Shown here in pieces: positions 1-55,640 of a stretch of DNA of 64,000 nucleotides. The stretch spans positions 7,626,001 to 7,690,000 of the forward strand of contig OZ024749.1 of assembly GCA_964016885.1 (NCBI GenBank), in the 5' to 3' direction. Source of the stretch: Eledone cirrhosa. Lineage: Eukaryota. The translations under genes and the position numbers were made by a program. The notes under the pieces are model-generated. The model ran no database searches and was not told the origin of the DNA. It saw only the letters and a list, made by a program, of their open reading frames with translations. Position 1 is the stretch's first letter. Each line of letters begins with the position of its first letter.

Positions 1-119
1 ATTTAATTTGTTGGGATACAACAAGCAAATATTTTTATAACTGATATAAAGCACTCAACAAATAATTGGAGTAAAAATACGATAGTAACAAATGGAAACT
101 ATATTTATAAAACCATATT

Positions 120-184
120 TATTTCATTATACATATTTCAAGGGCACCAAGTTAAATTATGGTGTGCTTTCATCAGATAAAATA
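120..184 (-). ncRNA. Type I hammerhead ribozyme (family D)
   Basis: Minus strand reads tattttat-CTGATGA-aagcacacca..tggtgccctt-GAA-ATATGTAT-A-atgaaata: 8-bp stem I, intact core, AUA triplet. Confidence 0.8.
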
Positions 185-318
185 TAATATAGAGCAGTTT
201 TATCAATAAATATTGACATACCCTTAAAGAATGCGACCATTACCGTTGAGCTTCCAACAGTAATGGTCGCATTCTTTAAGGGTATGTCAATATTTATTTA
301 TAAAACTGCTCTATATTA

Positions 319-383
319 TATTTTATCTGATGAAAGCACACCATAATTTAAATTGGTGTCCTTGAAATATGTATAATGAAATA
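319..383 (+). ncRNA. Type I hammerhead ribozyme (family D)
   Basis: tattttat(319-326) CTGATGA(327-333) stem II(334-363) GAA(364-366) ATATGTAT A(375) atgaaata(376-383); predicted cleavage after 375. Confidence 0.8.
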
Positions 384-494
384 AATATGGTTTTATAAAT
401 ATAGTTTCCATTTGTTAATATCGTGTATGTATATATATATATATATATATGTGTATATATATATATATATATATATTTATATGTATATATATAT

Positions 495-700
495 ACGAAG
501 GAGAAGTTGGCCTGTCCTGACCCGGATACGATTGCGAGCTGGAATGGCTCTTCCAGCGCGTCTCCCTCATCATCCTTCGGGGAAGCTCCTTCTCTAGTCT
601 GTTCGGCCAGCGCGTGGGCCCCCATTTACTCACAATAGTGAGAGATGGAATAAGCGGGAGAGATGCCAGACAGTCGGAGCATGGTTCTCTTATTTATCAT
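495..700. repeat. Unclassified GC-rich dispersed repeat related to 61096-61300
   Basis: Shares cccccattt(a/g)ctcacaatagtgagagatg and downstream similarity with 61214-61290; begins at a (TA)n tract. Confidence 0.55.
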
Positions 701-993
701 TTTCAATCTTCATTACATATATACATTTTCTGTGCCCGGATAACTTATGTAATTTACTATATAAGCCCCCCCCCCCAAAAAAAAAAAAAAACTCCCCGAA
801 ACTGTAACACCATTACTACTATCAACAGAGGAGAAACACTGACACAGCAGCAACAACAAACAGCAACAAAAACCGCAATAACAACAACGACATTAACCAC
901 AGCAATAACAGCAACCACAGTAATAACAACAAAACAACACCAACAAAAACAAATGCAACACTTTTTTAAAAGCCATAACTACAAGAATTCAAT

Positions 994-1782
994 ATTATGT
1001 TCTCCCGCCGAGGTTAACTTTGCCTTTCATCCTTACGGGGTCGATAAAATAAGGTACCAGTAATGTACTGGTGAATTTGCTGGCCTTGTGCCAATAGTAG
1101 AAACAATTATGTTCTCCCGCCAAGGTTAACTTTGCCTTTCATCCTTACGGGGTCGATAAAATAAAGTACCAGTAATGTACTGTGGATTTGCTGGCCTTGT
1201 GCCAATAGTACAAACAATTATGTTCTCCCGCCGAGGTTAACTTTGCCTTTCATCCTTACGGGGTCGATAAAATAAAGTACCAGTAATGTACTGTGGATTT
1301 GCTGGCCTTGTGCCAATAGTACAAACAATTATGTTCTCCCGCCGAGGTTAACTTTGCCTTTCATCCTTACGGGATCGATAAAATAAAGTACCAGTAATGT
1401 ACTGGTGAATTTGCTGGCCTTGTGCCAATAGTAGAAACAATTATGTTCTCCCGCCAAGGTTAACTTTGCCTTTCATCCTTACGGGGTCGATAAAATAAAG
1501 TACCAGTAATGTACTGTGGATTTGCTGGCCTTGTGCCAATAGTACAAACAATTATGTTCTCCCGCCGAGGTTAACTTTGCCTTTCATCCTTACGGGGTCG
1601 ATAAAATAAAGTACCAGTAATGTACTGTGGATTTGCTGGCCTTGTGCCAATAGTACAAACAATTATGTTCTCCCGCCGAGGTTAACTTTGCTTTCATCCT
1701 TACGGGGTCGATAAAATAAAGTACCAGTAATGCACTGGATAATTGCTGGCCTTGTGCCTAATGTAGAAACAATTATATTCTC
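994..1782 (+). repeat. Tandem array of 7 head-truncated Deu/Nin-core SINE copies (111-112 bp unit)
   Basis: Units start at 999, 1111, 1222, 1333, 1445, 1556 and 1667; core gcctttcatccttacggggtcgataaaataaagtacc; bounded by attat(g/a)ttctc direct repeats. Confidence 0.9.
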
Positions 1783-1849
1783 CTCCATATTTATTTCTTC
1801 CTATATTAATTACCTTTCTATCTTACCTTCATTAATTATTTCATTCTTA

Positions 1850-53920: not shown

Positions 53921-53971
53921 TATATATATATATATATATATATATATATATATATATATATATATATATAA

Positions 53972-54180
53972 TATGGAAAACGAAGAATCAGTGACCCATC
54001 GGAATACAACTTATTATGCATTACAATTGTTTCTCCTGCGTACAGCTTGAGGTGCGATCTGTTTGTGGATCGAACCTGACTCTGGATTCGCAAGTTCCTC
54101 AGATACGTCTAGTGGTTTCGAAGCAAATTCTCTTTCTGCTGGACTCCGACCCTTCGGATTTTTATCATCTGCCTTCATCC
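53972..54180 (-). mobile_element. Family B end with long-stem-II HHR (54018-54106)
   Basis: gtat-CTGAGGA-acttgcg...cgcagga-GAA-ACAATTGT-A-atgc. Confidence 0.72.
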
Positions 54181-54267
54181 TGTATATATATATATATATA
54201 TATATATATATATATATATATATATACTAATTCTAAGAACATCAATGAATCCGAATGCTTTGATTCT

Positions 54268-54430
54268 AGGACTAGAACTAATTCATTCGTGAGCAATATT
54301 CGATAATTTCTCCCGATTGAAACTGTTCTAGTCCTGTAGAAACCTTTTCTATATTAAATATTTATACTCTGCTTTATATTGACTACTTTACTTACTGTGG
54401 TAACCCACAATTGTTCCCGTGATAAGCTTA
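54268..54430 (+). mobile_element. Family C fold-back end
   Basis: Hairpin 54268-54334; homologous to the reverse complement of 6340-6470. Confidence 0.7.
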
Positions 54431-54553
54431 TATATATATATGTATATATATATATATATATGTATATATATATATATATATATATATATATATATATGTA
54501 TATGTATGTATGTATGTATGTATGTATGTATGTATGTATGTATGTATGTATGT

Positions 54554-55007
54554 GGGCAAAGGAGCTCTTAAGAGTCAATGGCCATCCAAAATCACCGGGA
54601 GAGATGACCCCTTAGCCTTTGTCAAGGCAGAATTCTAGGAGAAGGAAAACTCTGATATAACACCTGCAACCCTGATGGTATCCAATGATGTTCACTTGTT
54701 CTTCTTTTTGGTAAATATCATCTTGGTTAAGAGAGTGGGACTGGCTTTGTGCATTGCCTTTGCTCACTATAAAAGCTTCACGGCACAGGCATTGCTTTAT
54801 ATCTGGAGATCTCTCTGCACGTGTCGTCACATGGTACCATGGGCCCAGCACTATGTGTCAATAATTGTCACAGGTGTAGTGTTTGTACCAGCGTTTTCAA
54901 GTCGCTGGCTGGACTAAAAAGTCACACTCGTTCAGCGCATCGGTAGGGGTTCTCCTACATGGATATAAAGTAGTGGCCGTACTCGAAAACGAGTTGGCAG
55001 CCACCAT
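54554..55007 (+). mobile_element. 5'-truncated RTE-like retroposon in (TATG)n
   Basis: Near-identical to 21555-22008; (ATGT)n on both sides. Confidence 0.85.
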
Positions 55008-55089
55008 GTATGTATGTATGTATGTATGTATGTATGTATGTATGTATGTATGTATGTATGTATGTATGTATGTATTTATGTATGCGTGT

Positions 55090-55640
55090 GTGTAGGTATT
55101 AAGGTGCAAGTTAATAGCGTCCATGGGCGGTATGGCGAATGAGCACTCGATGTTCTTGTGTAGCAGAGTAGCAGTAGTATTAATATATAAGGGAACAAAG
55201 AATCAGTGTCGCACCATATATATAGTTAATTATATATTAGATATTACATGGGTTTCACTGTCGGTCAGCTCGAGTCTACATGTTAAAACATCTGAGGAGC
55301 CTCCGATTCCAGGGTCAGATTCTATCTTTAATGTATCGTTCCTCGAGCTGATCGACAATGAAACATATGTAATATGTAATACGTAATTAAATATGTATAT
55401 GATGCAACACTGATTCTTGTTCCCTTATATATTAATTGTTTCTACTTTTGGCACAAGGCCATCAATTACCCAGTGCATTACAGGTACTTTATTTTATCGA
55501 CCCCGTAAGGATGAAAGGCAAAGTCAACCTCGGCGGGATTTGAACTCAGATCGTAAAGGGACGTAACTATGCTGGAAAGCATGGTGTCTGACCCTCTACC
55601 GATACTGCCAATCCACCGCCCTTATATATTAATACTATGT
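55090..55640. mobile_element. Family B fold-back element (arms 55179-55274 / 55342-55435) with a SINE inserted at 55436-55620
   Basis: Plus strand CTGAGGA(55292)...GAA-ACATATGT-A; SINE TSD cttatatattaat at 55423 and 55621. Confidence 0.75.

Follow-up and report, generated by a model that had tools for sequence, protein, structure and literature searches.

A bulged hairpin that occurs twice ahead of the gene in Hydra-clade Penelope-like elements: a candidate RNA start signal for (TA)n-primed reverse transcription

Penelope-like elements (PLEs) are retrotransposons whose Hydra clade has been characterized by an RWR or RWK motif, DKT, a CxCx5C linker and a GIY-YIG domain without internal cysteine pair (PMC8557442). 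For another clade, two insertion ends and a tail have been explained by two internal start sites: the Anolis PLE protein begins reverse transcription at two internal sites bounding the tail, and it requires RNA lying 3′ of them (PMC11167929). The clade, its hammerhead ribozymes, the (TA)n targeting, the tail and the two start sites are all published already; on how PLEs choose their template and start site, the one in vitro study gave two start sites and no signal that sets them. Here we describe a bulged hairpin in PLEs of Eledone cirrhosa, as seen from a 64,000-nucleotide (nt) stretch (GCA_964016885.1, contig OZ024749.1, positions 7626001-7690000, hereafter the window) of a 3.0-Gb genome rich in (TA)n. 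The hairpin occurs twice in the 5′ leader of Hydra-clade PLEs, and we put at roughly two in three the probability that it is the RNA site where the reverse transcriptase (RT)-endonuclease binds, starting (TA)n-primed reverse transcription just 5′ of it.

One half of this hairpin had been listed by an initial annotation of the window as a linear motif, RTYGAGTRCT, shared by hammerhead-bearing families (denoted here by letters) 55-70 nt before their (TA)n junction. The motif is present at every place cited, at or within a few bases of the position given (GAG starting at 7662, 12541, 14381, 17734 and 7426 on the plus strand and at 11571, 55148 and 6389 on the minus strand). Its consensus holds for families A, B and D only, with E, C and the copies at 17734 and 7426 each deviating, and the core common to all carriers is R-U-(U/C/A)-GAGY-N-C-Y; the distance to the junction measured in the window is 41-90 nt. 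The window contains 11 matches to strict RTYGAGTRCT where dinucleotide frequencies predict 0.82; most of the 11 are family A copies and hence not independent. In 126 evenly spaced 10-kb pieces of the genome (1.26 Mb), GAGTRCY lies 45-80 nt upstream of a (TA)4+ run in 85 of 350 cases, and 150 permuted-motif controls for the same spacing average 4%, the highest (19%) being a shifted form of GAGTRCY itself. This genome-wide positional enrichment, in tails that are unalignable between families, bears out the proposal of a conserved cis signal of PLEs, in a different shape: not a linear word measured from the downstream junction, but half of a covarying hairpin that is fixed relative to the end just upstream. 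The promoter and splicing functions suggested alongside gain no support from the DNA sequences analysed here.

Comparison among families identifies GAGYNCY as the 3′ arm of a hairpin composed of RCTC, a stem peculiar to each family, a loop ranging from a few to more than 100 nt, the matching stem, a 2-nt bulge led by U, and GAGY. In the same 1.26 Mb, a 2-nt bulge with three or more inner pairs accompanies 73 of the 180 GAGYNCY words located 40-110 nt before (TA)n versus 14/893 elsewhere, and the other bulge sizes near (TA)n give 14/180 (0 nt), 2/180 (1 nt), 8/180 (3 nt) and 4/180 (4 nt). When two inner pairs suffice, the count is 93 hairpins in 19 tail clusters whose inner stems differ; 14 clusters have two or more members, three of them being family A variants. 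The covariation set comprises 82 hairpins in which only GAG, CTC and the later C-Y were held fixed by the search. Of these, 60 have A-T and 12 have G-C as outer pair, and 61 have T-A and 17 have C-G as first inner pair; the bulge opens with U in 74, and its second base is U in 52, A in 15, C in 12 and G in 3. All figures are copies and not independent events. A kink-turn reading was dropped, as the opposite strand lacks GA.

The pairing bears on whether the element works in DNA instead, as an endonuclease site or an internal promoter element with incidental complementarity. The placement of the motif in the pseudo-long terminal repeat (pseudo-LTR)/5′ leader, the site of the internal promoter, would suit such a role, as would the Drosophila virilis Penelope tail, which according to work cited in PMC11167929 was required for the endonuclease to recognise plasmid DNA. 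However, a duplex DNA site needs neither inner stems that differ by family and yet remain complementary across a spacer of a few to more than 100 nt, nor the switch of the outer pair between A-T and G-C, and we consider this explanation improbable.

The hairpins and tails in the window are as follows, hairpin 1 being the one within the tail.

7642..7668, plus strand: family A hairpin 1 (ACTC, 4-bp inner stem, TT bulge, GAGTACT)
7634..7713, plus strand: family A tail, from the short end (8 nt before hairpin 1) to the long end
17161..17187, plus strand: family A hairpin 1, copy in a head-to-head pair
16995..17021, minus strand: family A hairpin 1, other arm of the pair with 17161..17187
26926..26952, plus strand: family A hairpin 1
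32618..32644, plus strand: family A hairpin 1
40826..40852, minus strand: family A hairpin 1
50..72, minus strand: family D hairpin 1 (ACTC, CAA/TTG, TT, GAGTGCT)
47314..47336, minus strand: family D hairpin 1 with decayed 3′ arm
12533..12608, plus strand: family D tail-only piece, from inside the hairpin loop to the long end
30168..30246, plus strand: family D tail-only piece, joined to an inverted copy and beginning inside the hairpin loop
14360..14387, plus strand: family E hairpin 1 (ACTC, CAGT/ACTG, TA, GAGTGCT)
14015..14042, minus strand: family E hairpin 1, other arm of the pair with 14360..14387
11565..11586, minus strand: family B hairpin 1, 2 inner pairs only
55142..55169, minus strand: family B hairpin 1, 2 inner pairs only
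6383..6404, minus strand: family C hairpin 1 (TGC/GTA including a G-U pair)
17657..17740, plus strand: family F (the copy at 17731) hairpin 1, long loop, present in the minimum-energy fold
7358..7432, plus strand: family G (the copy at 7421) hairpin 1, compensatory GCTC/GAGC form, long loop
57612..57662, minus strand: family K hairpin 1 (GCTC/GAGC form), new relative to the initial annotation
46587..46603, minus strand: hairpin of the same form, ~13 nt past the (TA)n end of a sister copy near 46100

The tail had also been said to occur alone at three places; those at 12532 and 30170 are such pieces and begin inside the hairpin loop, and that at 42159 is a partial tail without the motif. The region 46100-46700 (minus strand) is a partial tandem of another (TA)n-targeting family, in which one copy stops at (TA)n and a second reads through into the hairpin at 46587..46603; in related loci the two ends are just about 13 nt apart. 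A further tail with a GCTC/GAGC hairpin, likewise missing from the initial list, lies at 13260-13450 (plus strand, GAG at 13328) and in loci L117 and L109.

Insertion ends were mapped by aligning leaders to the random samples and the window, and they show a preference for (TA)n targets, with a TA run at the end of 61 of 76 alignments in family A and 42 of 48 in family D. In family A, 15 junctions fall at -28, 8 nt before hairpin 1 (-20), and 34 at +52, 6 nt before a second hairpin (+58), so that 49 of the 61 occupy two single positions. The two reproducible ends claimed earlier for families A and D are thus real, with a spacing of 80 nt in A instead of ~90 nt and of about 89-96 nt in D, and they extend to E and F and, in a few copies, to B: junctions fall in two zones in D (22 and 18 of 42), E (8 and 8 of 16) and F (9 and 7 of 16), the B subfamilies contribute 6 junctions 5-9 nt before a hairpin, two family J junctions lie 6 nt before one, and the inverted arms of family C stop at a fixed short end. 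The main peaks are 6-10 nt upstream of the hairpin 5′ arm, where the template matches the TA run for 2-6 nt (TA-like microhomology), and in tandem copies the element sequence runs on past both fixed ends. Several tail-only pieces begin in or at hairpin 1, as if copying from the second site often halted there. The 5′ ends of family A copies cluster at about -90 to -76, a place considered for an initiator-like start.

A second hairpin lies just past the long end in eight families, namely A, B, D, E, F, J, K and, by one copy, I. It stands 6 nt after the long end in a tandem array of family A (L061); one recurring type makes up 66 of the 67 pattern matches in family D and 100 of the 100 listed among 254 matches in family E, and by eye it is seen in 36 of 49 rows in family B. 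Both hairpins are also present in family J, which was picked up in the random samples through its protein, and family I shows the second at one of two matches. Families F and K were searched blind with a pattern holding the 5′ arm only, and the 3′ arm was recovered at 8/8 loci in F and at 11 of 12 read-through loci in K (15 loci fetched). The full two-arm pattern had given only 2 chance matches in family F because the loop of its hairpin 2 is 60-110 nt; this is an AT-rich insert, with both arms and the bulge intact (L214-L221). The main evidence for hairpin 2 is the single recurring sequence type together with the two blind recoveries. A supposed second hairpin of family C at locus L287 was rejected: a family C end is linked there, across a TA run, with a tail-only piece that belongs to family K. 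The idea of K as a third segment of C was dropped.

Hairpin 2 is about 20-70 nt upstream of the ATG in all read-through families, a placement that would also suit control of translation or packaging of the messenger RNA, with the ends set by TA-like microhomology in an AT-rich leader alone. The short ends of AT-rich families, which spread across several TA-like sites, agree with this. Yet the leaders are full of other TA-like sites although the ends cluster just before each hairpin, and the concentration of family A junctions at two single positions is contrary to ends made by microhomology only; we hold this alternative to be very doubtful.

Concerning the coding elements, a protein search with the GIY-YIG remnant at 52342-53022 of the window leads to tandem arrays that contain intact copies. 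One of them, L061, shows the family A repeat in a double role, closing the 3′ untranslated region (UTR) and serving as 5′ leader of the next open reading frame (ORF), an intact single ORF of 717 amino acids from the first ATG with RT and C-terminal GIY-YIG. The protein carries RLRWR, DKT, CNCPDRSIC (the CxCx5C linker) and, near the C-terminus, CNLC and CKH; its GIY-YIG domain has one cysteine inside, without a cysteine pair, and there is no CCHH. An RWR-type motif is also found in the proteins of B, D, E, F, J and K. Judged by such motifs, the families tied to a gene are assigned to the 3′ ends of Hydra-clade PLEs. Read-through copies of D, E, B, F, J and K enter ORFs with the same N-terminus, and family G sits after a Hydra-type ORF remnant in locus L084. 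Protein identity among A, D, J and B is about 30-45%, and between groups the leaders cannot be aligned by blastn except for the B subfamilies (70%) and D-E (71% over 66 nt). The families therefore appear to be distant relatives that kept the motif while its surroundings diverged; since they connect to Hydra-type ORFs, the motif would be inherited and not convergent. The initial annotation had called them unrelated, which does not hold for A, B, D, E, F, G, J and K, all linked to such ORFs; nor are they alignable homologues throughout, the A and J leaders having no blastn match to other families. The window itself contains:

51963..53919, plus strand: 5′-truncated, frameshifted Hydra-type PLE (RT end, CxCx5C linker, GIY-YIG)
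53800-53919, plus strand, with L061 about 5200-5320 and L066 about 7100-7150: U3:A8 hammerheads of families A and J

The first of these includes the 3′ UTR and a U3:A8 hammerhead and stops at the family A short end, which ties family A to a coding element. A type I hammerhead near the 3′ end was found by descriptor in D and E and read by eye in A and J, where U3:A8 replaces the C3:G8 core pair; most family A copies begin inside stem II and so are without the 5′ half of the ribozyme. The best 150 of 255 rows of an Rfam scan of the window include neither the hammerhead nor a family matching the hairpin, only one 5S copy and repeat-driven noise, and Pfam did not recognise the PLE pieces of the window. 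Among the fetched loci, L135 has mini-tandems of leader plus ORF start, L179 head-to-tail duplications of the tail, and L287 tails of different families joined within one TA run, arrangements that suggest repeated priming or template jumps at one site. Tandem matches of family F recur every 6-7 kb (L214-L221), a long unit for the Hydra clade.

The hairpin extends beyond this genome. Among eight metagenome loci, three near-identical contigs form one family (37% protein identity) with both hairpins before the ATG, in which the template sequence of one insertion, a single example, breaks off immediately ahead of hairpin 2; L309-L311 stop with no tail, L312 shows the 3′ arm and a doubtful 5′ arm, and L313 is cut off. 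A search of viral contigs found no relative. Of six published Hydra consensi (PMC8557442 File S7, read by eye), three have a clear hairpin, namely coral Hydra-2_Amil and sea cucumber Hydra-1_Ajap and Hydra-2_Ajap, and Hydra-1_Ajap has two copies before the ATG.

We propose that the PLE protein would bind the hairpin in RNA and nick (TA)n, and that the freed 3′ end would pair with the UA-rich bases before the bound hairpin, so that complementary DNA (cDNA) is extended 5′-ward from a start just upstream. Because the cDNA runs 5′-ward, the hairpin used for the start would never be copied: starting at hairpin 1 would give the short end, and starting at hairpin 2 the long end with hairpin 1 copied into the tail, for which reason the motif would be seen only in tails. 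A tailed copy is then predicted to be usable as template once more, and a tail-less solo copy not. The anatomy of hairpins and ends fits a signal for internal initiation of reverse transcription. The predicted reader of the bulge, and the weakest step of the proposal, would be an arginine-rich protein patch; the Hydra-type proteins here carry arginine-rich RR-RWR motifs. That the hairpin is a clade-wide, TAR-like arginine-sandwich structure serving as a portable start signal, on which the protein docks to prime from nicked (TA)n a few bases upstream, is a more tentative extension to which we give somewhat less than an even chance.

The same fixed spacing between end and hairpin would be expected if the hairpin directed formation of the RNA 3′ end a few bases upstream and RT then started at this ordinary 3′ end. 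In Anolis, indeed, RNA-seq read ends coincide with insertion ends; against this, the Anolis protein in vitro starts internally and needs RNA beyond the start sites (PMC11167929), and the 2-6 nt TA-like match at the junctions fits primer pairing inside a template. We regard 3′-end formation as unlikely.

Several observations weigh against recognition of a hairpin as a start signal. The sense-strand bias is weak (G-U 22 and A-C 11 of 303 positions). Single-copy folds give the hairpin in A, F and G and nearly so in D, and the best folds of the E and C windows take another register; the stability of single hairpins is unremarkable (z -0.2 to -2.0), and in the best fold of the two-hairpin family A leader the hairpins cross-pair, the 5′ arm of the first with the 3′ arm of the second. 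The argument for the structure is a comparative one, and folding of single copies gives modest support. Reversed-pattern controls (0-1 matches) are weak, showing that the family ends are real but not that the hairpin is. The 46 + 7 pattern matches of family C hold no recurring second hairpin, and no read-through copy or link to an ORF turned up for this family. One of three family J junctions lies 45 nt upstream of hairpin 1, and the short ends of D, E and F scatter over nearby TA-like sites 2-14 nt before the arm, in part because divergent subfamilies map poorly. As to the published consensi, copepod Hydra-1_Crog has two deviant forms whose purine bulges and altered arm do not fit a strict arginine sandwich, no such hairpin was seen by eye in Hydra-1_Obim, and Hydra-1_Amil is ambiguous (PMC8557442 File S7). 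A PLE of another kind also counts here:

37261-38241, minus strand (the two-ended PLE at 37834-38241; also L194-L198): non-Hydra PLE family with hammerhead

This family has two ends about 60 nt apart, with ATAT after each in tandem copies, and it lacks the hairpin, which is therefore not required for tails generally. A GCTAA-CAA-like word follows both ends and is perhaps its own start signal.

The window holds other repeats. At 50123-50442 (minus strand) a full 5S ribosomal RNA copy (Rfam 105.7 bits) is followed by an A-run and a copy of an abundant short interspersed nuclear element (SINE); because none of 337 SINE matches in the fetched loci includes the 5S head, this is probably a 5S retrocopy that happens to lie beside a SINE rather than a member of a 5S-headed family. 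At 994-1783 and 62245-62750 the central/3′ region of the SINE is repeated in tandem, in units of 111 bp and about 172 bp. Pieces of non-LTR retrotransposons, carrying RT and a C-terminus of the restriction-like endonuclease type, lie at 20336-24910 (minus strand), 36364-37250, 50603-51217 and 54555-55039, one of them split by a microsatellite.

Taken together, the hairpin is a real feature, a new cis-acting RNA element in a known retrotransposon class, and the mechanism proposed from these sequences is likely. Elements of corals and sea cucumbers share it with this genome, it keeps a fixed distance of a few bases from both ends, twin hairpins would account for the abundance of tail-bearing and tail-only pieces in (TA)n, and it provides a marker for annotating Hydra-clade ends; young intact copies in this genome are a possible source of protein. 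If the more tentative reading as a clade-wide, portable start signal is true, this would be the first defined RNA recognition element for PLEs, the sister group of telomerase. The tail would be explained, the number of hairpins would count the moves left to a copy, and any hairpin-bearing RNA could be aimed at TA repeats. Searches of the literature on Penelope and retrozyme RNA signals (subscription journals, Repbase reports and figure images being outside that scope) brought up no description of the hairpin, and the available portions of PMC11167929, PMC8557442, PMC4209133, PMC3846280, PMC7229834 and bioRxiv 10.64898/2026.07.22.740005 give none.

Among known systems, Poseidon_Ac also has a tail bounded by two start sites, a need for RNA 3′ of them and an AT-rich target, but it belongs to another clade, an AC-rich stem-loop within the ORF holds its start sites, and its RNA as drawn in Fig. 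S1 has by eye no GAGY arm; the accessible part of that study defines no conserved signal and no homology between target and template, unlike the 2-6 nt match here (PMC11167929). Non-LTR retrozymes are likewise short non-coding hammerhead repeats tied to PLE pseudo-LTRs (PMC7229834; bioRxiv 10.64898/2026.07.22.740005), with no such hairpin described in what is available of either source. In contrast to their tandem monomers, most copies here derive from the ends of coding elements, truncated and paired head to head, and many lack half of the ribozyme; identity with non-LTR retrozymes was rejected, the window copies being truncated ends and inverted pairs and the tandem arrays carrying the ORF. 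HIV-1 TAR and 7SK ASM3 resemble the hairpin in having a paired purine, a U-led pyrimidine bulge and a stem A-U pair able to form a triple, the arginine sandwich positions being A22, U23 and A27-U38 in TAR and A39, U40U41 and A43-U66 in 7SK (PMC6189040). Here a purine precedes the bulge in 80 of 82 hairpins (GAG itself being fixed by the search), and G-A paired with U-C follows it. Unlike in TAR and 7SK, it is the 3′ strand that bears the bulge, and the G-A stem points away from the loop; the resemblance is one of predicted secondary structure only. Compared with the Hydra clade in the available portion of PMC8557442, the elements here differ in the conserved hairpin, which is not described there, in tails of 80-137 nt versus 30-40 bp (figure legend), in the U3:A8 core of the family A and J hammerheads and in the 3.5-kb repeat unit of family A versus less than 3 kb for most Hydra elements, and they share with it the hammerhead, the (TA)n targets, the partial tandems, the inverted truncated copies and the optional tail.

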